Part shown: piece after piece, positions 3,929 to 64,000 of the stretch
Numbering within the stretch: position 1 is the stretch's first letter
How the letters are laid out: each line of letters starts with the position of its first letter
From: an uncultured Chloroflexota bacterium
GTDB lineage: Bacteria; Chloroflexota; UBA11872
NCBI GenBank assembly: GCA_958296175.1
Contig: OY282448.1
Coordinates: 719,899 to 783,898, forward strand
DNA: 64,000 nucleotides
Direction: 5' to 3'
The notes under the pieces: model-generated
What the model saw: only the letters and a program-made list of their open reading frames with translations
Databases searched by the model: none
Told to the model about the DNA's origin: nothing
Position numbers and translations under genes: made by a program

Positions 3929-5997
3929 GTGAATCGGCCGGCGCCGGCCACGCTGCCGTTTCGGGCGCGGGGCGGCAACGAACGGGCGCGGCTGGAAGTC
4001 AGGTTCCATCCGGCGGCGGGGGCCGCGGTGACGGGGCCGGATCTGCGCCTCACGGCCGGGGCGGTTGGCACCTGGGAGTTTCGAATCACCGTCCAGACGC
4101 CGGTCGCGGCCGGCGGCGGGTTCCTGTTCGAACGCTACGGGTTTCTGCTGGCGCACCGCGTGCAAGACGACCGGCCGCGGGGCCGCGACTTTGCCGTGCT
4201 GCATGCCAGCGCCGCCGCGCAGGTGCGGCTGGAGCTCAACACGCTCAACCAGTCCCACTGGCCCTCGTTTGCCCGCATCGCGGCGGCCGACGGCGCGCTG
4301 CGGCCCGGCGACGAGCTGCGGCTGCTGGTCGGCGACACCAGCCAGGGCGGGCCGGGCAGCGAGGTCTCCGACGTGACCTGCAACGGCCGTATCGTCGTGT
4401 CGATGGACCGCAGCGGCGGCCTGGACTACCGCCAGCTTTCGGGCGGCGAGGCGCGCCTGCACGTGGCGTCCGACCCCGCCCCCGCGCTGCTGCGGCTGCT
4501 CGGCCCATCCATCGCGCAGGTCGGCGAACCCTTTGCGCTGCACCTGGCCGTCTACGACCGCCACCACAACGTCTGCACGCAGTATCGGGGAACCATCGAG
4601 CTGCGCCCGGCGGCGGGTCTCCAGGGGCTGCCGCGCCGCGTGGAGCTTGGACCGGCGGACGCCGGCGCGGCCGTGATCGACGGCGTGTCGGCGTCCGCGC
4701 CCGGGCTGGTGCGTATCGAGGCGCACGACCGCGCCCGCGGGCTGTCCACGCGCAGCAACCCGCTGCGCGTGGAGGCGGCCCCGGCCGCGCGGCTGCTCTG
4801 GGGCGACCTGCACTCGCACAGTTGGGGCGACGTCAGCATGAGCCTGATGGACGACCCCACGCCGATGCTGCACCCGGCCGGCCGCCACGCCCAGGCGCGC
4901 GGCCAGGCGCGGCTGGACTTTGCGGCCCCCGGACCCATGGCGCCGCCCGATCAAGACCAGCGGCCCGCCGTCTGGCAGGCGCACCAGGACGCCCACCGCG
5001 CCAACGACCAGCCGGGCGCGTACGTCCCATTTCTGGCCGCCGAAGCGCATCCCCAGGTCGGCGGCGACCGCAACGTGATCTTTCGGGACTGGGCCGAGCG
5101 CCACGCGCCGGCCTTCGTCGACATGGACGAGCTGCTGGCGGCCTACGGCGGCCGCGAGGACGTGCTGCTGGAGGCGCACGTGGGCGGCGGGCCGGCGGAC
5201 TGGGAGGCCTACCCCACGGCGCACGAGCCGCTGGTGGAAGCGGCCAGCGGGCACGGGGCGGCGGAATGGCTGCTGCAGCGCGCCCTGCGCCACGGGCACC
5301 GGCCGGCCGTGATTGCCTCCGGCGACACCCACCTGCCCACACTGGCCGCCCCCATGGCCGCGCATCATTTTCGGGGACGCTTTCAGCGCTGGCTGCGGGT
5401 GCGCGACGCGGCCTTCGGCTGCGGGCCCGTGGCGGCGGTGCGCGCCGCGCGCTGCGAGCGCGGCGCCATTTGGCAGGCGCTGCGCGCGCGGCGCACCTAC
5501 GCCACTACCGGCGCGCGCATCATCCTGGAGGTGCGCGCCAACGGCCACCCGGCGGGCAGCGAGATCGCCCTCGACGCCGCGCCGCGCCGCTGCCGCAGGC
5601 CGCCTATTACGTGCGTCTGCGGCAGACCGACGGCGAATACGCCTGGAGCACGCCGATCTGGGCTGCATGCAGCCTGGGCGCCCCCGCCGCCGGCCGCAGC
5701 CTGCCCGCCTGGAACCGCCACGAAGCCATCGACCTGGACGCCGCGCATCCGAACGACGCCGAACCCTACGCCCCGCAGCTGCGCCAATACCTGGAGGACA
5801 ACGAGGACCCGAGATTGTTCCACCAGATCACCCCGATCCGCCTGGTGGACGAAGTCCCCGGCCGCGCCGCGCTCTTCTACGCCTACCTGGGCGGCGAGCG
5901 GGACCCGGTCTCGATCCGCTGGTACTTCGAGTTCCCCATGCCGCGCCTGCGCCTGGACTGGGGCTGGCGCGACTTTGGGATGAAGGACGGAGGCTGA
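3929..5997 (+). CDS. DUF3604-like / PHP-type metal-dependent hydrolase-like protein, with an apparent frameshift near 5585-5600
   Basis: Body lies in the frame of ORF 3794..5983 (LLWGDLHSHSWGD...TGARIILEVRANGHPAGSEIALDAAP). The C-terminus (AAYYVRLRQTDGEYAWSTPIWAA...WYFEFPMPRLRLDW) lies in the frame of ORF 4822..5997. The switch falls inside the gccgcgccgcgccgc repeat. Start assigned to GTG 3929, which is uncertain. Confidence 0.5.
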
Positions 5998-6163
5998 CGA
6001 CGGGGGCAGCCAGCGGCTCGCTGCCAGCGGCCTGCGGCCGCAAACCCACCGCTCTGTTCCGCAGGTGGTAGCCTGCCGTGACGGCCGTTCTCGGAAACGA
6101 CCGGGCGAACGGCGCATCGCGCTTGCAAACACGCAACAATCCAGGAGGGCGCGGCTTCCAGTG

Positions 6164-8710
6164 ATGACGAAACGACTCGTTCTGGCGGCGGTTGCCGTCG
6201 CCGTGCTTCTGTCTGCCGCGGTCTCCGCCGCCCTGGCGCAGTGGCCCACGACCTGCGTCGAGCTGAACGACCTCGCCGAGGCCGCCGCTGGCAACGTCGA
6301 CAACGTCGGCATCTATCAGCGCACCTACGGCGAACAGGCCGAAGCCGTGTGTCAGGCCGAACACCGCAACGACTTCTTCTTTGGCGCCCGCCCGTTCGCC
6401 ACGCCGCCCAAGACCGACCCGGCCGGCTTCACCCAGGCGTTCGTCGAGCGCGCCATCGACCGTTACAACGCCGACGGCATGCAAGCCGCGATCGACTACT
6501 ACAACGCGCCCGAGAGCATGGACGGGCGCTGGTACGTCTTCATCGTGGACGCCGACGGCGTGACGCGCGCCCACCCGAACCCGGAGATTCGCGGGCGCCG
6601 CGTCACCGACGTGCGCGGCCTGGCCGGTTACCCCAACGGCGCGCTGATCGCGGCCGCCGCCGCCGAGGGCGGCGCCTGGACGTCCGACGTGCTGACGGGC
6701 GCGGACGGCCAGCTGGAAACCAAGCACTACTGGCTCGTGCGCTACGACGGGCTGATCTTCGGCTCCGGCTGGTACGAACCCGGCCCCTCCAAGGCCGACG
6801 ACCCCGCCGCCTACACGCAGACCCTGGTGCAGCGCGCCGTGAGCCTCTACGACGCCGTGGGCCGCGACGAAACCTTCGCCCACTACGGCTCGCCGCAGAG
6901 CGTGGACGGCCCCTGGTACGTCTACGTCGCCGACGCGGAGGGCACGCTGCTGTCGCATCCCATCATGCCGGAGCTGGTGGGCGTCGAGGATCTGCGCGGG
7001 ACGGACGGCTTCCCCATCGCCCGGCAAAGCGCGGCCGCGGCCTCCGAGGACGGAGGCTGGGTGCACTACACCTGGACCAACCCGGAAACGGGCACGGCGC
7101 AGACCAAGCATTCCTGGAACGTCCTTCACGACGGGTTGATCTTCGGGTCGGGCTGGTACGAGCCTGCCCCGACCAAGGACGACCCCGCCGCCTTCACCCA
7201 GGCCTTCGTGCAGCAGGCCGTGAACCTCTACGAGGCCGCGGGCCGCGACGAAGCCTTCGCCTACTACGGCTCGCCGCAGAGCGTGGACGGCCCCTGGTAC
7301 GTCTTCGTCGTCGACGCCGGCGGCGAGCTGCTGGTCCACGCCGCGTCGCCGCAGCTGGTTGGACAAAGCCTGCGCGGCCCGCTGGGCACCGACAGCGCCG
7401 GCTACGCCTTCGGCGCCGACATCCTGGCCGCCGACGAGGCCGGGCGCTGGGTCAGCTACATCTTCGACAACCCCGAAACCGGCCAGGCAGGGCTCAAGCA
7501 TTCCTGGGTCCTGCGCCGCGGCGACCTGATCTTCGGCACCGGCTGGTACGAACCCGTCAGTGACGCCGCAGCCTTCACCCAGTCCTACGTGGCCAAAGCC
7601 GTGCAGGTGCTGGAGACCGACGGGCGCCAGGCCGTGCTCGACTACGCCAACGCGCCGGCCAGCGTGCAGGGACCCTGGTACACCTTCATCATCGACCGGG
7701 CCAGCGGCGCCATCGTGGCGCACGGCACGCGCCCGGAGCGCCTGGGCCGCACGCTGGACATCCTGGTGGATGTCTCCGGCTACCACTACGGCGCGGACTT
7801 CGCGCAAGCCACCGCTCAGGGCCGGTGGGTGGACTACATCTTCCTGAACACCGTGACAGGCGCCTACGAGCAGAAGCACTCGTGGGTGGTCGAACGCGAA
7901 GGCCTGATCATCGGCTCTGGCTGGTACGAACCCATCGACCGCGATGCCGACCCCGCGCGCTTCACCCAGGCGTTCGTGGCCAAGGCCCTGCGGCTGCACG
8001 AGACCGACGGGCGCCAGGCCGCCATCGACTACTACAACGCGCCGGCCAGCGTGCAGGGACCCTGGTACATCTTCATCATCGACAAGGCCAGCGGCGCCAT
8101 CGTGGCGCACGGCACGCGCCCGGAGCGCCTGGGCCGCACGCTGGACATCCTGGTGGATGTCTCCGGCTACCACTACGGCGCGGACTTCGCGCAAGCCACC
8201 GCTCAGGGCCGGTGGGTGGACTACATCTTCCTGAACACCGTGACGGGCGCCTACGAGCAGAAGCACTCGTGGGTGGTCGAACGCGAGGGCCTGATCATCG
8301 GCTCCGGCTGGTACGAACCCATCGACCGCGATGCCGACCCCGCGCGCTTCACCCAGGCGTTCGTGGCCAAGGCCCTGCGGCTGCACGAGACCGACGGGCG
8401 CCAGGCCGCCATCGACTACTACAACACCACCGCGAGCGTGGACGGCCCGTGGTACGTCTTCGTCGCCGACGCCAGCGGAGAGATGCTGGCCCACGCCGTG
8501 TCGCCGCAGCTCATTGGCCAAAGCCTGAGCGGCCCGCTGGGCACCGACAGCACCGGCTACGTCTTCGGCGCCGACATCCTGGCCGCCGACGAAACCGGGC
8601 GCTGGGTCGACTACGTCTTCCTGAACCCCACCACGGGCCAGGAAGGCACCAAGCACTCCTGGGTCGTGCGCCGCGGCGACCTGATCTTCGGCTCGGGGTG
8701 GTACGAGTAA
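6164..8710 (+). CDS. secreted protein with an N-terminal two-Cys module followed by six tandem single-Cache (sCache_2-like) domains
   Basis: ATG 6164 preceded by AGGAGG. Signal peptide MTKRLVLAAVAVAVLLSAAVSAALA. Six repeats of roughly 129 aa, each with YNAPxSVDGPWYVFxxDxxGxxxAHxxxPExxG...GxWVxYxxxNPxTGxxxxKHSWVxxxxGLIFGSGWYEP, which matches the sCache_2 pattern. No TM segment and no output domain. Confidence 0.8.
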   Translation: MTKRLVLAAVAVAVLLSAAVSAALAQWPTTCVELNDLAEAAAGNVDNVGIYQRTYGEQAEAVCQAEHRNDFFFGARPFATPPKTDPAGFTQAFVERAIDRYNADGMQAAIDYYNAPESMDGRWYVFIVDADGVTRAHPNPEIRGRRVTDVRGLAGYPNGALIAAAAAEGGAWTSDVLTGADGQLETKHYWLVRYDGLIFGSGWYEPGPSKADDPAAYTQTLVQRAVSLYDAVGRDETFAHYGSPQSVDGPWYVYVADAEGTLLSHPIMPELVGVEDLRGTDGFPIARQSAAAASEDGGWVHYTWTNPETGTAQTKHSWNVLHDGLIFGSGWYEPAPTKDDPAAFTQAFVQQAVNLYEAAGRDEAFAYYGSPQSVDGPWYVFVVDAGGELLVHAASPQLVGQSLRGPLGTDSAGYAFGADILAADEAGRWVSYIFDNPETGQAGLKHSWVLRRGDLIFGTGWYEPVSDAAAFTQSYVAKAVQVLETDGRQAVLDYANAPASVQGPWYTFIIDRASGAIVAHGTRPERLGRTLDILVDVSGYHYGADFAQATAQGRWVDYIFLNTVTGAYEQKHSWVVEREGLIIGSGWYEPIDRDADPARFTQAFVAKALRLHETDGRQAAIDYYNAPASVQGPWYIFIIDKASGAIVAHGTRPERLGRTLDILVDVSGYHYGADFAQATAQGRWVDYIFLNTVTGAYEQKHSWVVEREGLIIGSGWYEPIDRDADPARFTQAFVAKALRLHETDGRQAAIDYYNTTASVDGPWYVFVADASGEMLAHAVSPQLIGQSLSGPLGTDSTGYVFGADILAADETGRWVDYVFLNPTTGQEGTKHSWVVRRGDLIFGSGWYE
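7651..8424 (+). repeat. near-identical 387-bp tandem duplication inside the sCache gene (two copies, 129 codons each)
   Basis: cgcgccggccagcgtgcagggaccctggtaca begins at 7651 and again at 8038. The copies differ by only a few substitutions across about 387 bp. Confidence 0.85.
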
Positions 8711-16507: not shown

Positions 16508-17293
16508 TCAGCTCGACGCGCTGGTGTAGTTCCGCAGGCCGAAGCGCCAGAAGCGCACGGCCGCCAGCAGGGCCGCGGCGGCGATCAGCGGGGCGGCCCA
16601 CAGCACCACCAGCGGCTCGCGCCCGGTGATGGTCTGGGCGGGCACGGTGGTGATGAAGGCGACGGGGAACACAAAGGTCAAGAGCTGCCGCAGCCAGAAC
16701 GGGTAGACCTCGACGGGGTAGCGGCCGGTCTCGAAGAACAGGTTGAAGATCATGGTGATGTTCTCGACGCGCACGAACCAGAACACCAGCGTGGTCAGCG
16801 CCAGCCAGATGGCGTAGACGATGGCGACGCCGGCGGTCATGGCGGCCGCGAAGACGGCGGCGCCGGCCAGGGTGACGTTCGCCTCCAGCCGGGCCAGGCC
16901 GACCCAGATCACGGCCGCGCCCAGCACCACGTCGCTGACGTGCCAGACGACGAAGCGGCGCGTGCTGGCCAGCAGCAGGGAGGGGGCAGGCTTGAGCAGC
17001 ATGTAGTCGAAAGTGCCTTCCCGGACTTCCTGCACGACCTTGTTGAGGCTGGGGCTTAGCACGGTGGAGACCAGGCCGTTGACCAGGTAATAGACGCCCA
17101 GCAGCACCAGGACCTGTTCCATCGTCCAGCCGCCCAGCACGCGGGTGTGCGCGAACACCACCGCCAGGCCGCCGATGGCCATGGCAATGCCGAGGGCGCT
17201 GCGGATTACGTTGCCCAGCAGCTCGCCGCGGTAGGCCGTCTCGTCCAGCAGGGCGGCGCGTCCGAACGCCCAGATCACCCGCGCCAGGCGCAT
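16508..17293 (-). CDS. ABC-2 family transporter permease
   Basis: Six predicted TM helices; frame of ORF 16508..17338; start ATG 17293 (MRLARVIW). Confidence 0.7.
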   Translation of the reverse strand: MRLARVIWAFGRAALLDETAYRGELLGNVIRSALGIAMAIGGLAVVFAHTRVLGGWTMEQVLVLLGVYYLVNGLVSTVLSPSLNKVVQEVREGTFDYMLLKPAPSLLLASTRRFVVWHVSDVVLGAAVIWVGLARLEANVTLAGAAVFAAAMTAGVAIVYAIWLALTTLVFWFVRVENITMIFNLFFETGRYPVEVYPFWLRQLLTFVFPVAFITTVPAQTITGREPLVVLWAAPLIAAAALLAAVRFWRFGLRNYTSASS

Positions 17294-17295
17294 GG

Positions 17296-18099
17296 TCAGG
17301 CGCCCACGGCTTCGTAGTGGCGGATGCCGGCGCGCCACACCAGCGCCACGATCACGGCGGCCGCGGCCACCCAGCCGGCTTGCAGCGCCAGGCCCAGGGC
17401 GACCTCACCGGGCGGCAGGCGGTTAAGCAGCACCTCGATCGGGAAGCCCAGCGTGTAGCGCATCGGCAGCGCGGCGGCGAGCTGGCCCATGACGCCGGGC
17501 AGCAGCTCGACAGGCGCCACCTGGCCGCCGAGCAGGAAGGTGAGACCCATCCAGATTTCCCAGGACGACCCGGAGCGGGTGGTCCAAAAAGCGAGCAAGG
17601 CGAACCCCGTGCCGGCCAGGAAGGACAGGAGCACGGCGCCGGCCAGCGACAGCATGAAGAGCGCGATGCTGGCGGGAGTGGCGCCAAACTCCGGGCGCAG
17701 CACCAGGAACAGCGCCGTCCAGATCGGAATCAGCAGCAGCACGGCCACGGCCTTGTAGGACAGGTTGCGGGCGGCCGCCACCCACACGGGATGCATGGGC
17801 CGCAGCAGGTGCGGCGAGAGCCGGCCGTACTGAATCATCGGCCCAAAGGTGTAAATCTCGATGGCGACCGTGAGATGCGACACGATCATGAACGTGAGGT
17901 AGTAGGCCGTGAAGTCGCTCTGCCGCAGGCCGCCGACGTCGCCTTCCCCCGCCACGGCGGACCACACGGCCATATAGACGATCGGGTGGATGAACCCCCA
18001 CAGCGCATAGAGAAACACCACCACGCGGTATTGCAGCATGTCGGCCATCTCGGCGCGCAGCATGGCCAGCGGGCCCGCCAGCCCCAGGCGGAACGTCAC
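17296..18099 (-). CDS. ABC-2 family transporter permease
   Basis: Polytopic membrane protein in the frame of ORF 17296..18813. Start GTG 18099 overlaps the stop of the ATPase gene (GTGA); ATG 18063 is the alternative. Confidence 0.65.
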   Translation of the reverse strand: MTFRLGLAGPLAMLRAEMADMLQYRVVVFLYALWGFIHPIVYMAVWSAVAGEGDVGGLRQSDFTAYYLTFMIVSHLTVAIEIYTFGPMIQYGRLSPHLLRPMHPVWVAAARNLSYKAVAVLLLIPIWTALFLVLRPEFGATPASIALFMLSLAGAVLLSFLAGTGFALLAFWTTRSGSSWEIWMGLTFLLGGQVAPVELLPGVMGQLAAALPMRYTLGFPIEVLLNRLPPGEVALGLALQAGWVAAAAVIVALVWRAGIRHYEAVGA

Positions 18100-19079
18100 G
18101 TCCGGTTTCCGCGGAACACCTGCTCGATGACTTCTTCCAGCGGGGGATCTTCGACGCTGAGGTCGGCAACGGGCAGACGGGCCAGCAGCTGGCCGGTGAC
18201 GGCCGGGGCTTCGTCTTTGCGCGTGCGCACGGTGACCTGCGCGCCCTCCTGGCTGACGATTTCGCCCAGGCCGCGCAGCTCGGCGGGGTCCACGGGCTGT
18301 TCCAGATGCACGGTGATGGTCTTGTGCGGCGCGTAGCGTTCGGCCAGGCCGTGCAGGGCGCCGTCGTAGAGCAAGCGCCCGCGGTCGATCACGATGACAC
18401 GCTGCGCCAGGGCTTTTACGTCGGCCATGTAGTGGCTGGTCAGCAGCACGGTGGCGCCGGTTTCGGCGTTGTAACGCGCCACGAACGCGCGGATGCGCTG
18501 CTGCATGGTCACGTCCAGCCCAATCGTCGGCTCGTCCAGGAACAGCACGCGCGGGCCGTGCAGCAGGCCGGCGGCCAGCTCCACTTTCATGCGCTCGCCC
18601 AGCGACAGTTGGCGCACGGGCTTGGTCAGCAGGCCGTCCAGCTCCAGCAGCTCCGTCAGCAGGCCAACCGTGCGGCGGAAGACGGCGTCGTCGATCCCGA
18701 ACACCGCCTTGTTGACCTGAAACGAATCGCCGGCCGGCAGGTCCCAGAACAGTTGCTGGCGCTGGCCCATGATGAGAGTGATGCGCGCGAGGAAGTCGGC
18801 GCGGCGGTCCCAAGGCGTGAATCCCAGCACGTCCACGCGGCCGTGGGTGGGGTGCAGCAAGCCGCTGAGCACCTTGAGCGAGGTGGTCTTGCCCGCACCG
18901 TTCGGCCCCAGGAAGCCCACGATCTCGCCCGGCGCCACCTCGAACGAGATGCCGTCCACCGCGCGCACCAGACGGCGGCGGCGGCGCCAGACGCTGCGCA
19001 GCGAGGCGCGCAGGCCGGCGCCGCGCTCGGGCACCACGTAATGCTTGACCAGCCCATGCACGCGGATGTCGGGAGGCAT
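18096..19079 (-). CDS. ABC transporter ATP-binding protein
   Basis: Walker A GPNGAGKTT, signature LSLGERMKV, Walker B VLFLDEPTIGLD. Confidence 0.9.
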   Translation of the reverse strand: MPPDIRVHGLVKHYVVPERGAGLRASLRSVWRRRRRLVRAVDGISFEVAPGEIVGFLGPNGAGKTTSLKVLSGLLHPTHGRVDVLGFTPWDRRADFLARITLIMGQRQQLFWDLPAGDSFQVNKAVFGIDDAVFRRTVGLLTELLELDGLLTKPVRQLSLGERMKVELAAGLLHGPRVLFLDEPTIGLDVTMQQRIRAFVARYNAETGATVLLTSHYMADVKALAQRVIVIDRGRLLYDGALHGLAERYAPHKTITVHLEQPVDPAELRGLGEIVSQEGAQVTVRTRKDEAPAVTGQLLARLPVADLSVEDPPLEEVIEQVFRGNRT

Positions 19080-19195: not shown

Positions 19196-19337
19196 GGGAT
19201 ATCTCTAGGGTGATCGTCGGCGTGGTGACGGGTCTGGTCTCCAGGGCGAGGGGGAAGAAGGAGGGGTCTCTCTAGGGGGCGCGGGGGAAATCACGTGCGG
19301 CGTGTCACACTCGGGGGATTCGACTGGGAGGCCCGCC

Positions 19338-20807
19338 ATGACCACGCAACGCCCGATCGCAGCGCCGGAGTTCCCGGCCGGGCTGGAATGGGCCAATACC
19401 CGCCGGCCGATCCGCCTGGAGGACTTGCGCGGACGTCTGGTCATCCTGGACTTTTGGACCTTCTGCTGAATCAACTGCCTGCAGCTATTTCCGCAGTTGC
19501 GGAAACTCGAAGAAGCGCACGGGCCGGCGCTGGCGGTCGTGGGCGTGCACACGCCCAAGTTCCCGGCCGAACGCGCAACGTTCAACGTCCGCTTCGCCGC
19601 GCGGCGCCACCGGCTGGAGCATCCGGTCGTCAACGACCCCGACTTCCACATCTGGCAGACCTACGGCGTGCGCGCCTGGCCGACGCTGGTCTTCGTCGAC
19701 CCGCTGGGGAACGTGATCGGGTTCCACGCCGGCGAGGCGCCGTTCGAGGCGCTGGACCGCGCGGTGCGCAACATCCTGGATCGGCATCGGGCGGCCGGCA
19801 ACGTGATCGACACGCCGCTGGACGTGCTGGAGCATGCGCCCGACCTGGACGGTCTGGCGTTCCCCGGCAAGGTGCTGGCCGCCCCGCAGCGGTTGTACGT
19901 CGCCGATTCCGGCCACCACCGCATCGTGGAAACCGACCGCGCGGGCGCGGTGCTGCGCGTGTTCGGCTCGGGAGCGCCCGGCCACCGCGACGGCGCGGCC
20001 GCGCAGGCGCAGTTCACCTATCCGCAAGGCCTGGCGCTGCACGGGGACGTGCTCTACGCGGCGGACACCGAAAACCACCGCATCCGCGCCATCGACCTGG
20101 CGCGCGGGACGGTGGCAACCGCGGCCGGCACGGGCGCGCGCGGCCATCCCGCGCCGGGCGCGCATCCGGCCCTGCAGGCCGAGCTGGCCTCGCCCTGGGA
20201 CCTGGCCTGGCACGCAGGCCGTCTGTTCATTGCCATGGCCGGCATGCATCAGATTTGGGTCATGCATCCGTCGGACGGCACGATCGGGCCGTATGCGGGG
20301 TCGGGCGTGGAAGACTTGCAGGACGGCCCGCTGGACGGCGCCCGCCTGGCGCAGCCCAGCGGCCTGGCCGTGTTCGGCCGGCGGCTGCTGGTGGCCGACA
20401 GCGAAACCAGCGCCGTGCGCTCGCTGCCGCTGGACGGGCGCGGGGACGTCACCACGATCGTCGGCAGCGGCTTGTTCGACTTCGGCGACGTGGACGGCAG
20501 CGGCGGCGAGGTGCGCTTGCAGCACCCGCTGGCCGTGGCGGCGGGGCCCGAGGGCGCGTTCATTGCCGACAGCTACAACAACAAGCTCAAGCGCGTCGAC
20601 CCCGAGCAGCGGCGCGTGACCTCGTGTGCCGGCGCGGCGGCGCACGGCCGCAGCGACGGCCCCGCGGCCCAGGCGCGCTTCCACGAGCCGGGCGGCCTGT
20701 CTCTGGCCGACGGCGCGCTGTACGTCGCCGACACGAACAACCACGCGGTGCGAAAGCTCGATCTGGCCGCCGCCCGCGTGGAAACCCTGGAGATCCACGG
20801 CCTGTAG
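19338..20807 (+). CDS. thioredoxin-fold (redoxin) / NHL-repeat protein with in-frame TGA at 19467 - candidate selenoprotein (UxxC)
   Basis: ATG 19338 after GGGAGG. N-terminal redoxin [18 protein letters not shown], where TGA sits at the first Cys of the CxxC motif. The same frame continues to TAG 20805-20807. Downstream NHL repeats [47 protein letters not shown]. Confidence 0.6.
19488..19505 (+). promoter_or_regulatory. stem-loop 18 nt downstream of the in-frame UGA (possible bacterial SECIS-like element)
   Basis: AUUUCCGC-AGUU-GCGGAAA gives a 7-bp stem and an AGUU apical loop. Position and size are compatible with a minimal bSECIS. Confidence 0.3.
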
Positions 20808-20950: not shown

Positions 20951-21808
20951 GAGGAACTGACCACCGTGTTTGCAACGATTGGACGCACCTGGGAGCTCAC
21001 CAAGATGAGCTGGGGCGTGCTGACGAGCGACCGCAAGCTGATTGTGTTTCCGCTGCTGTCGGGGCTGGCGCTGGTGGTGCTGGCCGCGCTGCTCACGGGC
21101 GTGGGGCTGGGCGTGGGCACGCTCGACCGGCTCGGCGGCGGGGCGGTGACCATCGCGGACTTCGCGCTGCTGGCCGTCACCTACTTCCTGCTGGCCTTCG
21201 TCATCATCTACTTCAACGCCGCCTTGATCGGCGCGGCCATGGTGCGGCTGGCCGGGGGCGAACCCACGCTGGGCGACGGGTTTCGGCTGGCCAACCAGCG
21301 GCTGCCCCAGATTGCGGGCTGGGCGCTGATTTCCGCCACGGTGGGCCTGATCCTGCAGGCGCTGCGCAACCAGTCGGAGGACAACTTCCTGGGGCAGATC
21401 GTCATATCCATGGTGGGCGGCATCTGGGCGTATCTGACGTTCTTCGTGGTGCCGGTGCTGGTGGCCGAGGGCGCGGGGCCGATCGAGGCGATCAAGCGCT
21501 CCGGCTCGCTGTTCAAGCGCACCTGGGGCGAGCAGGTGGCGGCGAGCTTCGGCTTCGGCATCGTGGGGCTGATTGCGGCGGTGATCGGGCTGGCGCCCGC
21601 CTTCCTGGTGGCGCAGGTGTCGCCGATGGCCGGCGCGGCGGTGGCGGTGGTCACGGTGGGGCTGGCGATGACGGTCGTCTCGACCCTGGAAGCGATTTTC
21701 AAAGCGGCGCTGTACGGCTACGTGGCGGACGGGCGCGTGGCCGAGGGCTTCTCGCGCGGCACGCTGGAGAGCGCCTACGGCCCGCAGCGCGGGCTGAGCC
21801 GCTTCTAA
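20951..21808 (+). CDS. hypothetical polytopic membrane protein
   Basis: About 6 TM helices with no Cys. Start is uncertain: GTG 20951 or ATG 21005 after GGGAG. Confidence 0.55.
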   Translation, partial: EELTTVFATIGRTWELTKMSWGVLTSDRKLIVFPLLSGLALVVLAALLTGVGLGVGTLDRLGGGAVTIADFALLAVTYFLLAFVIIYFNAALIGAAMVRLAGGEPTLGDGFRLANQRLPQIAGWALISATVGLILQALRNQSEDNFLGQIVISMVGGIWAYLTFFVVPVLVAEGAGPIEAIKRSGSLFKRTWGEQVAASFGFGIVGLIAAVIGLAPAFLVAQVSPMAGAAVAVVTVGLAMTVVSTLEAIFKAALYGYVADGRVAEGFSRGTLESAYGPQRGLSRF

Positions 21809-21821
21809 AGGCCAGATTCAG

Positions 21822-22556
21822 TTGAGCGGCACGCACACGGGGCGGCGCGCGGCCGTCTACGGCGCCAGCAGCGGCATGGGGCGGGCCAGCGCCCTGGCGC
21901 TGGCCCGCGCCGGCGCCGACGTGGCCCTGCTGGCGCGCAACGCCCAGGCGCTGGACGAGGCGGCCGCCGAGATTCGGGCGCTGGGGCGCGCCGGCGAGGT
22001 CATCCCCGTGGACGTGCAGGACCCCGCCGCGGCGCGCGCGTCGGTCACGGCCATCGTGGACGCGCTGGGCGGGATAGACGTGCTGGTCTACGCCACCGGC
22101 TGGAACATCCCCAACCGCGCGTTCGAACGGCTGAGCCCCGCGGACTGGGACCTGATGCAGCGCACGAACCTGTGGGGGCTGTACGACGTGGTGCAGGCCG
22201 CGCTGCCGGAGCTGCGCAGGTCTGGGGCGCGGGTGGTCGTCGTCTCGTCCGCCTGCGTGCAGCTGCCCGACGTCTCCGGCATCGCCTACCAGACCACCAA
22301 GCACGCCGAGGTGGGGTTCGTGCACGGGCTGATGCAGGAGGAAGCCGCCAACGGCATTCGCGCCACCGTGCTGTTCCCGGGGCTGACCGAAACGCCCATG
22401 CTGGGCCGCCGGCCGACCCCAACGCCTGCGGAGGTGGTGGCGCAGGCGCTGCAACCCGAAGACGCGGCGCAGGCGGTGGTCTTCGTCACCTCGCTGCCGC
22501 CGCGGGCCTACGTGCCCGAACTGATGCTGCTGCCGGCCGCCATCCAGCAGCGGTAG
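21822..22556 (+). CDS. SDR-family short-chain dehydrogenase/reductase
   Basis: VYGASSGMGRA (TGxxxGxG) and YQTTK (YxxxK). Confidence 0.85.
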   Translation: MSGTHTGRRAAVYGASSGMGRASALALARAGADVALLARNAQALDEAAAEIRALGRAGEVIPVDVQDPAAARASVTAIVDALGGIDVLVYATGWNIPNRAFERLSPADWDLMQRTNLWGLYDVVQAALPELRRSGARVVVVSSACVQLPDVSGIAYQTTKHAEVGFVHGLMQEEAANGIRATVLFPGLTETPMLGRRPTPTPAEVVAQALQPEDAAQAVVFVTSLPPRAYVPELMLLPAAIQQR

Positions 22557-55619: not shown

Positions 55620-56190
55620 GCGCCGCGGCCTTGCGTTCCGCCTTCGGGGGACCTTTGCGTACTTCCCAGGCGCGGGGGCCGGTGGGGTTGCCGACGTGCA
55701 CGGCCGCCGCCTGTTGCCGTACCTCCCAGGCGCAGGGGACGGTGTCGGCGAACCAATGCCAGCATCGGTGTACCTCGTGCCTGCGGGATTCCGGCGTTCA
55801 CCGGAATGACGGATTCTGCAAAGGTCTCGTCGGGCGCCGCGACCTTTCGGTCGGCCGCGCGGGCACCGCGCGTTTGGAAGCCGCCGTCTGTGGGGCGTAT
55901 GCTTGCTGCACGCACACATTGTGCCTTCGGGGCAGGGTGAGCCTGGCGGTGCCGGGCAATTCCCGACCGGCGGTGAGGCGCATGGCCGAGCCCGCGACCC
56001 GGCGTTTGCCGGTTGATCCGGTGCGAATCCGGAGCCGACGGTACAGTCCGGATGGAAGAAGGCGCCGTGGGCGCGCTCATGCGCGCGCGCCCGTGCCCCG
56101 GCGGCTCACGCGTTGGACGAACACCGTGGCACCCGCCCTGACCGCCATACCCGCCTTCTTCTCGGACGCCGCGCGCCGCTGTGGGGCGCC

Positions 56191-63008: not shown

Positions 63009-63083
<75 letters not shown>

Positions 63084-63215: not shown

Positions 63216-63545
63216 GGGCGGGAGCATCGAACCGGGCGGTAAGCCGCATTCTGTCGCGGGCGGCCATCTATCTGGGACCGGCGTTGCCGCCGGCCTCGTG
63301 CGGCCCACCTGGGACTGGGCGAGCAGCCTCGCAGCGTCCCGGCTTGGCCTTGCTTCCGGTAGAGGTTGGCCGTTTCACTCCCGGCGGGGCGCCGGGCATC
63401 GTCACTGTGCCCCTGGTCCGGCCCTTGGCGGCGGGCGGCCGCCTCGGACGGCGGGTGTTACCCGCTACCGTGCTCTGTGAAGTGCGGACTTTCCTCTCGG
63501 GCGGCGGGCCCGAGCGGCCGCCTGCCCGACCCGATGCTCCCGGAG
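63216..63545 (-). ncRNA. rnpB: RNase P RNA (bacterial type A)
   Basis: Minus-strand RNA contains GAGGAAAGUCCGCAC (P4 5' strand), GGUAACACCCGCC, GGAAGCAAGGCCAAG, GACAGAAUGCGGCUUACCG, and a long P1 helix GGGAGCAUCGGGUCGGGC paired with GCCCGGUUCGAUGCUCCC. Confidence 0.85.
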
Positions 63546-63837: not shown

Positions 63838-64000
63838 AAAGGAGGTGATCCAGCCGCAGCTTCCGCTACGGCTACCTTGTTACAACTTCGCCCCAATCGC
63901 CAGCCCCGCCCTCGACGGCTGCTCCCCTTGCGGGTTGGCGCACCGTCTTCAGGTGTTGCCGACTTTCATGGCGTGATGGGCGGTGTGTACAACGCCCGGG
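63838..64000 (-). rRNA. 16S ribosomal RNA, 3' terminal about 160 nt (gene continues beyond window end)
   Basis: Plus strand carries AAGGAGGTGATCCAGCCGCA and GGCTACCTTGTTACAACTT (the 1541R/1492R primer sites), plus GGGCGGTGTGTACAA. This places the 16S 3' end (GGAUCACCUCCUUUCU) on the minus strand ending near 63838. Confidence 0.9.

Follow-up and report, generated by a model that had tools for sequence, protein, structure and literature searches.

Is a TGA triplet that lies exactly in the redox-active motif of a thioredoxin fold, within a frame that is open on both sides, read as selenocysteine (Sec), or does it simply end the protein? This question is raised by a gene of an uncultured Chloroflexota bacterium (lineage UBA11872), found on contig OY282448.1 of assembly GCA_958296175.1, in a stretch of 64,000 nucleotides (positions 719,899 to 783,898) that is called the window below. 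The gene joins a thioredoxin-like (Trx-like) domain to an NHL-repeat propeller and is referred to here as the Trx-NHL gene. An original prediction, made from the letters of this DNA, had proposed it as a candidate selenoprotein gene in which Sec takes the place of the first Cys of the CxxC motif. This proposal is supported by conservation of the triplet, by homologs with Cys at the same site, and by a hairpin shortly 3′ of the TGA. Judged from these sequence comparisons, the window gene is very probably a genuine selenoprotein gene, with UGA codon 44 read as Sec.

The TGA codon and the hairpin that follows it

Direct reading finds the triplet exactly where it had been claimed, in the context DFWTFC-TGA-INC; the region of codons 41–47 runs TTC TGC TGA ATC AAC TGC, that is, F-C-stop-I-N-C. 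The further claim that the same frame continues through the NHL repeats to a normal stop is confirmed by translation and by Pfam: from the ATG the frame is open past the TGA, and no other stop is met before the terminal TAG (coordinates are given in Table 1). Among the 303 in-frame TGAs of the window that are flanked by 30 or more open codons both 5′ and 3′, only that at codon 44 shows a coding signature on both sides, the signature being high GC content at third codon positions (GC3) together with moderate GC content at second positions (GC2). TGA is also the commonest ordinary stop of the window, where, of the 41 long open reading frames (ORFs) that show the coding signature (GC3 > 0.85), 23 end in it. 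A general reassignment of TGA can therefore be dismissed: the genetic code is standard, and any recoding has to be site-specific.

The public gene call for the window locus (P0001) is a shortened protein of 436 aa, and the annotated start, TTG 19497, lies inside the hairpin loop described below and has no ribosome-binding motif. The same shortening is seen in relatives. In a protein search, the eight nearest relatives (64–100% identity) are all 424–441 aa long and cover 86–89% of the query, and all more distant matches are full length. Indeed, all public gene calls seen for the TGA form (NCBI, ENA, JGI and Logan) are about 53 residues short and have lost the active site. In the DNA of three of these eight (L001–L003; related loci are cited by such numbers), a 43-codon ORF, the TGA and the INC codons follow one another in one frame, and the 38 nt 3′ of the TGA are invariant but for one synonymous ATC/ATT difference.

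For a wider view, 80 loci from a scan with one genome per species were combined with the window and L001–L003 into a family set of 84 members. A stop stands at the codon-44 column in 22 of them, window included, and it is TGA in all 22 cases, never TAA or TAG. The other 62 members encode Cys here, by TGC or TGT, in the context CCINC or GCINC (C/G-C-[IVM]-N-C), and the CCINC motifs of SOQ1 and NHLRC2, two structurally characterized relatives, are aligned there as well. The expectation that homologs would carry Cys at the TGA position is therefore borne out. The 21 TGA-bearing loci besides the window are about 50–77% identical to the window protein; L004, at 77%, is the closest match among the loci from the species scan. 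All but one of the 18 named stop-bearing metagenome-assembled genomes (MAGs) belong to Chloroflexota, and the carriers in this phylum are spread over Dehalococcoidia, Thermomicrobia, Ardenticatenia, Ktedonobacteraceae, Chloroflexia and Caldilineaceae. Among the Dehalococcoidia, the TGA form is present on the complete chromosomes OZ220672.1, OZ220681.1, OZ245044.1 and OZ247429.1. The short form also makes up two protein clusters, one with 63 members and one with 16, drawn from independent assemblies and including a Tara Oceans mesopelagic gene, and the DNA pattern FWT[FY]C-TGA-INC was matched in at least 120 metagenome contigs. The MAG outside Chloroflexota is L065. Its in-frame TGA (L065:4457-4459) is isolated: the context is G-TGA-VNC, no hairpin follows on the 3′ side (−1.9 kcal/mol), and the gene is nested in a GCINC clade of Cys forms. 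This TGA is probably a pseudogene or a sequencing error, not a second Sec lineage.

Selection on the frame was examined as the ratio of nonsynonymous to synonymous change (pN/pS), computed among the window gene and the four relatives nearest to it. For the 43 codons 5′ of the TGA, pN/pS is 0.19–0.29 against the window and 0.00–0.29 over all pairs, with pS up to 0.67; for the 100 codons on the 3′ side it is 0.06–0.27. The 5′ segment can also be aligned with full-length Cys homologs, SOQ1 and NHLRC2. The 43 upstream codons are under purifying selection as part of the Trx domain, and the frame runs through the UGA, with selection at the protein level before it and after it.

The second element to be considered is the hairpin. 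A stem of 7 bp closed by an AGUU loop begins 18 nt 3′ of the UGA, as the original prediction had stated, with a free energy of −9.3 kcal/mol. The published model of the bacterial selenocysteine insertion sequence (bSECIS) allows a loop of 3–9 nt, a stem of 4–16 bp, a UGA-to-loop spacing of 16–37 nt and a minimum free energy of −7.5 kcal/mol or lower, and it places a G at loop position 1 or 2, with G or U as the usual next base. The window hairpin falls within all these limits: besides its stem and its energy, it has a loop of 4 nt, a spacing of 25 nt, and G-U at loop positions 2–3. The suggestion that it acts as a bacterial SECIS is strengthened by this fit and by covariation in relatives. When the hairpin is read in a fixed register across the family set, all seven pairs can form in 17 of the 22 TGA forms, and at most four can form in 60 of the 62 Cys forms. 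Over the 21 distinct TGA sequences, 91.8% of the cells are paired, against 30–67% when the 3′ arm is slid by one to three columns. In the same 21 sequences, both partners vary in four of the seven pairs, and the observed covariation score was not reached in any of 500 shuffles. For example, in L006 a change of R to G (CGG to GGG) is offset by a synonymous change of CCG to CCC.

An independent metagenomic set gives a similar result, with six or more of the seven pairs kept in 85 of 118 copies, among many stem variants; most of the remaining 33 copies have another stable hairpin that begins 20–25 nt 3′ of the UGA. These differing hairpins at the same offset belong to other clades of the TGA form (L089, L106, L093, L116 and about 30 other metagenome loci) and read, e.g., CCGGAGCU/AGCUCUGG or CUUUCCGGA.../...UCUGGAAAG. 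This variety suggests repeated reshaping of the SECIS in the Trx-NHL family; varied hairpins at one offset are the usual picture for bSECIS elements. Codon usage provides another view of the window hairpin. The genome has 72% GC and a GC3 of 0.91, and the codons that build the hairpin are rare in it: CTA makes up 1% of Leu codons, TTG 5.4%, TTT 17.7% of Phe codons, and AAA 24% of Lys codons. The hairpin region is the single lowest-GC3 stretch of ten codons in the gene, where RNA structure evidently overrides codon bias.

In a neighbour-joining tree, the TGA forms come together as a Chloroflexota grouping with Cys subclades nested inside it. L047 and L050 are sister to the TGA-form L045; L053, L023 and L041 form a second subclade, and L010 is a third case. 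The position of these subclades within the TGA grouping points to several switches between Sec and Cys. Two of the Cys forms, L047 (Ktedonobacterales) and L041, keep six of the seven hairpin pairs at +22 to +39 as counted from the Cys codon. The hairpin of L047 reads CTCGCGC-AACT-GCGCGAA, and that of its TGA-form relative L045 is nearly identical, with the loop AGTT. Both Cys-form hairpins look like relics of a SECIS left after a recent Sec-to-Cys conversion.

Probable Sec decoding and the competing explanations

Several results weigh against Sec decoding of the window gene. The 64-nt region 3′ of the UGA is no more stable than shuffled sequence (z = 0.32). A folding z-score is uninformative in such a GC-rich context, so that the case for the hairpin rests on comparison with relatives and not on thermodynamics. 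In a 45-nt fold, a rival 8-bp pairing of CUGCAGCU with AGUUGCGG (19479-19502) is slightly more stable, at −10.5 kcal/mol; since its 5′ arm is unconserved in relatives, this pairing is probably incidental. There is also the matter of the Sec machinery, as no selA, selB, selD or tRNA-Sec lies within the 64-kb window. A tblastn search of it with the E. coli proteins SelA, SelB and SelD gave no similar sequence, the only tRNAs in the window are tRNA-Glu and tRNA-Met, and no Rfam match to tRNA-Sec was obtained. ARAGORN found no tRNA-Sec in 60 related loci either, although none is expected at these loci. In favour of Sec decoding, the literature documents tRNASec in Chloroflexi, in an atypical 8/4 structure that may escape generic finders, and very large selenoproteomes in Chloroflexota, with 46–49 selenoprotein genes in Dehalococcoidia MAGs.

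One relative also bears on the machinery. L176, a metagenome contig of 14.4 kb and 44% GC, carries a C-TGA-INC Trx-NHL gene, whose protein is nested among the Dehalococcoidia TGA forms in the tree, and a selD gene 3.3 kb away from it. This selD (5622-6668, minus strand of L176) itself has an in-frame TGA and reads MVENAIRLTELSHCAG-TGA-AAKF (LSHCAG-TGA-AAKF), its TGA standing where the E. coli protein has its catalytic Cys17 (SHGAGCGCK). It is of the known UxxK type of Sec-containing SelD and has a hairpin of its own, 8 bp with a GUU loop, which starts 23 nt after the UGA. A Sec-type selD beside a TGA-bearing Trx-NHL gene lends indirect support to Sec decoding in this clade. The 120 closest database homologs of the L176 SelD (P0149–P0268) are 306–328 aa long and span 88–94% of the query length; probably these, too, are SelDs with Sec that lost their N-termini in gene calling, as the Trx-NHL protein did. 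Two apparent SelB matches were discarded: that in L053 is EF-Tu, adjoining nusG, and a fragment at the edge of L176, beside tRNA-Thr and tRNA-Tyr, is most likely EF-Tu as well.

Four other explanations of the TGA have to be weighed. The original prediction had named as its own alternative a TGC-to-TGA point mutation or a sequencing error, which would make the gene a pseudogene or, if the assembly is at fault, an artefact of the window genome. The two triplets are one nucleotide apart, and L065 does resemble just such an isolated stop, in a Cys clade and lacking a hairpin. However, an error would not turn up again in 21 other loci, in at least 120 metagenome contigs and in the two independently assembled clusters with their 63 and 16 shortened proteins; nor does it fit with purifying selection on both sides of the triplet or with a hairpin that co-occurs only with TGA forms. 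Its probability is close to negligible. If the TGA were instead a true stop, the locus would produce a 43-aa peptide, a separate protein of 436 aa from TTG 19497, or both. The gene callers of NCBI, ENA and JGI all give a product of 424–441 aa, and some short peptide is to be expected in any case, because release factor 2 (RF2) always competes at a Sec-UGA. Such a split, however, would sever the thioredoxin fold within the CxxC active site, and it would rely on a start codon placed in a hairpin loop and lacking a ribosome-binding site. It also leaves the exclusive use of TGA, never TAA or TAG, and the selection on 43 upstream codons that align with full-length Cys homologs as part of a domain without explanation, and it is very improbable.

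The remaining two explanations accept that the codon is, or was, recoded. Insertion of an amino acid other than Sec, either Cys by a tRNASec-like tRNACys(UCA) or a near-cognate residue by hairpin-stimulated readthrough, has a precedent in some bacteria, in which a tRNACys(UCA) of the selC* type together with SelB* and CysRS* decodes Sec-UGA as Cys; Cys would be acceptable at this site, as the Cys-form homologs indicate. But selC* has been reported from Deltaproteobacteria, Clostridia, Nitrospirae and similar groups, not from Chloroflexi, and it is always accompanied by the full Sec system. The Sec-type selD near the gene of the clade member L176 and the G-U that the bSECIS model requires in the hairpin loop also speak for Sec, so that only a slight chance is left to this explanation. 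A similarly slight chance may be given to the possibility that the gene is a selenoprotein gene by descent and that the window genome has since lost Sec decoding, the gene being a recent inactive relic. The lack of Sec machinery in the window is consistent with such a loss, turnover of the trait is visible in the Sec-to-Cys switches of the family tree, and the Cys form L047 still keeps six of seven pairs of a relic hairpin. On the other hand, the window ORF is intact over 489 codons, its hairpin is fully paired despite strong GC pressure against its codons, and pN/pS of the gene is 0.12–0.27 against its nearest relatives; loss of Sec decoding normally leads to conversion to Cys or to decay. 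Reading of UGA codon 44 as Sec thus remains the best explanation of the window gene.

Layout of the locus

The features of the gene are collected in Table 1. Purine-rich motifs of the GGAG type are also found 5′ of the ATG in L001, L002 and L004, and none is clear in L003.

Table 1. Positions of the gene, its domains and motifs, and the candidate SECIS hairpin in the window
Feature	Position	Strand	Description and basis
Shine-Dalgarno-like GGGAGG	19326..19331	+	6 nt 5′ of ATG 19338; direct reading
Putative Sec-form Trx-NHL ORF	19338..20807	+	489 codons and TAG stop (20805-20807), about 54 kDa; translation, Pfam and PDB sequence matches
Thioredoxin-like (TlpA/DipZ-like) domain	19365..19742	+	aa 10-135; Pfam Thioredoxin_8, AhpC-TSA and Redoxin
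Redox motif C43-U44-I45-N46-C47	19464..19478	+	TGC TGA ATC AAC TGC, with U44 as predicted; counterpart of CC(I/V)NC in NHLRC2/SOQ1
Predicted Sec-UGA codon (codon 44)	19467..19469	+	TGA in all 22 similarity-retrieved stop-bearing members and in at least 120 metagenome contigs
Candidate bacterial SECIS hairpin	19488..19505	+	UUUCCGC-AGUU-GCGGAAA; stem 19488-19494 / 19499-19505, loop AGUU 19495-19498
Conserved cis-Pro P115	19680-19682	+	WPT motif (W114-P115-T116), aligned with SOQ1 WPT
NHL-repeat beta-propeller	19854..20801	+	aa about 173-488; Pfam NHL 3.2e-27; aligned with SOQ1 7djm and NHLRC2 6g7w

On the upstream side and on the opposite strand lies an ABC-2 transporter (16508-19079, minus strand), composed of an ATPase and an ABC2_membrane_6 permease. 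Downstream (20975-22556, plus strand), a DUF6159 gene is followed by a gene for a short-chain dehydrogenase. Both flanks are syntenic with those of L001–L003, and the conserved neighbours have no evident functional connection to selenium. Farther away, the 3′ end of a 16S rRNA gene is located at the edge of the window (63838-64000, minus strand), and it is followed by RNase P RNA (63224-63533) and tRNA-Met (63009-63083, minus strand) instead of a spacer and 23S rRNA, which suggests an unlinked arrangement of rRNA genes in this organism. An FMN riboswitch is present at 55919-56067 (plus strand; Rfam RF00050, 100 bits).

The protein family and comparison with known systems

In a search of PDB sequences, the full frame matches SOQ1 (7djj, E = 4e-105, aa 7-488), the best match with a solved structure, and NHLRC2 (6gc1, E = 1e-101, aa 5-485). 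The closest match to a stand-alone Trx-like domain is DipZ (2hyx, E = 4e-23). Pfam and the end-to-end alignment give the architecture of the NHLRC2/SOQ1 family, in which an N-terminal Trx-like domain of the TlpA/DipZ type leads into an NHL propeller of six blades. The CC(I/V)NC motif that marks this family is found as C-U-I-N-C, with the predicted Sec for its second Cys, and the cis-Pro of WPT is kept. The C-terminal domain with a second Cys pair (C1006/C1012 in SOQ1, C689/C696 in NHLRC2) is missing from the window protein, which stops after the propeller, at the equivalent of residue 513 of the 667-residue SOQ1 chain. By its sequence, then, the window protein is a core-only member of the NHLRC2/SOQ1 family. 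No obvious N-terminal signal peptide is present in its 489 residues, so that it is probably cytoplasmic. Among NCBIfam models, no family passes its cutoff for the window protein; the best selenoprotein model, WAxxUGC_long (NF041054), scores 19.5 bits against a cutoff of 300.

When the UGA is taken as a Sec codon, a course of decoding and catalysis can be proposed. SelB.GTP carrying Sec-tRNASec would bind the AGUU hairpin downstream of the UGA, and the complex would deliver Sec as the ribosome reaches this codon, in competition with RF2. The product would carry a C-U-I-N-C centre. In SOQ1, C431 and C434 form a redox-active pair that is required for function, so that U44 would replace the N-terminal, nucleophilic Cys of the CxxC motif, and the centre would cycle via a selenenylsulfide with C47. 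By homology, this centre would lie in the cleft opposite the propeller, the presumed site of substrate binding. If SOQ1 is a guide, the activity may be that of a protein disulfide reductase or a sulfoxide reductase; in general terms, the bacterial Sec form, with only the core of the family, would be a propeller-guided thiol/selenol oxidoreductase.

The principle, Sec for the first Cys of CxxC in a thioredoxin fold, is classic and already known. As for the family, a 2026 inventory of 119 prokaryotic selenoprotein families includes several UxxC families of the thioredoxin fold and describes none with an NHL propeller or as NHLRC2/SOQ1-like. The term "NHL" does not appear in the main text of this inventory, of a 2022 review, or of the BSepDB, deep-Sep and GOS papers and Peng et al. 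(2016). Again, no Sec form of NHLRC2 is mentioned in its structure paper or in the literature found that mentions NHLRC2 together with selenoproteins. The Trx-NHL family may overlap with the generic entry "Redoxin family protein (PF08534, UxxC)" (HEU0032618.1, MBA3499694.1); that entry is not described in Peng et al. (2016) or in the GOS paper. We tentatively propose that Sec-containing orthologs of NHLRC2/SOQ1 may form an uncatalogued selenoprotein family across Chloroflexota, that the second Cys of CC(I/V)NC may be the catalytic nucleophile, and that these proteins may act as propeller-guided reductases that work without the C-terminal domain; as a whole, this proposal is somewhat less likely to hold than to fail.

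Natural exchange of Sec and Cys is generally accepted as marking a redox cysteine with a catalytic role. The wide occurrence of a Sec form in nature argues that the corresponding site of NHLRC2 is catalytic, and, if the proposal is true, the Sec/Cys pairs would be genetic evidence for a nucleophilic second Cys of CC(I/V)NC, including Cys-90 of human NHLRC2. NHLRC2 is essential in mammals and is mutated in FINCA disease, and no activity has been assigned to it. Under the same proposal, the family would comprise protein reductases, possibly of the methionine-sulfoxide or disulfide type, that work without the C-terminal domain. For databases, hundreds of entries would be corrected by a model made for this family, and the selenoproteome of Chloroflexota would grow. 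In addition, several Sec-to-Cys switches in one phylum, together with a relic hairpin, offer a compact system for studies of the gain and loss of Sec.

Among known proteins, SOQ1 of Arabidopsis (PDB 7DJJ) has in common with the window protein the Trx-like domain and the six-bladed NHL propeller, the CCINC motif aligned to C-U-I-N-C, and the WPT motif. It differs in having Cys in place of Sec and in being a lumenal protein anchored in the membrane; it also has a HAD domain at the N-terminus and a further domain at the C-terminus, both of which are absent from the window protein. The lumenal region of SOQ1 has been described in a preprint as a methionine sulfoxide reductase, an activity that needs the cysteines of the C-terminal domain. 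Human NHLRC2 (PDB 6GC1), the FINCA disease protein, has its CCINC motif (residues 89-93) in the cleft that separates the Trx-like domain from the propeller, and its structure paper notes bacterial homologs with a CC(I/V)NC motif. In contrast to the window protein, NHLRC2 is known with Cys only and has an extra C-terminal domain of beta-strands. It showed no insulin-reductase activity, and the authors suggested that it does not carry out thiol-disulfide exchange. The C-terminal Trx-like domain of DipZ from Mycobacterium tuberculosis (2HYX) shares the xCINC context in its SCINC motif, but it has neither an NHL propeller nor Sec and is part of a membrane protein for electron transfer.

As to the RNA element, the window hairpin is like the consensus bSECIS (as used in bSECISearch, of the E. 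coli fdhF type) in being a stem-loop within the coding sequence just 3′ of the UGA and in keeping to all limits of the model. It has no resemblance in sequence to the SECIS elements of E. coli, and none is required; it is a predicted target of SelB. A bulged U is a feature of the fdhF SECIS and is absent from the window hairpin. Finally, the nearest systems with Sec are the known UxxC selenoproteins of the thioredoxin fold, namely Sec-thioredoxin, the peroxiredoxin (Prx)-like thiol:disulfide oxidoreductase, the thiol:disulfide interchange protein, the TlpA-like UGC protein and the "Redoxin family protein." With these the window gene shares, if its UGA is decoded as predicted, Sec in place of the N-terminal Cys of CxxC, homologs with Cys at this position, and a bSECIS just 3′ of the codon.

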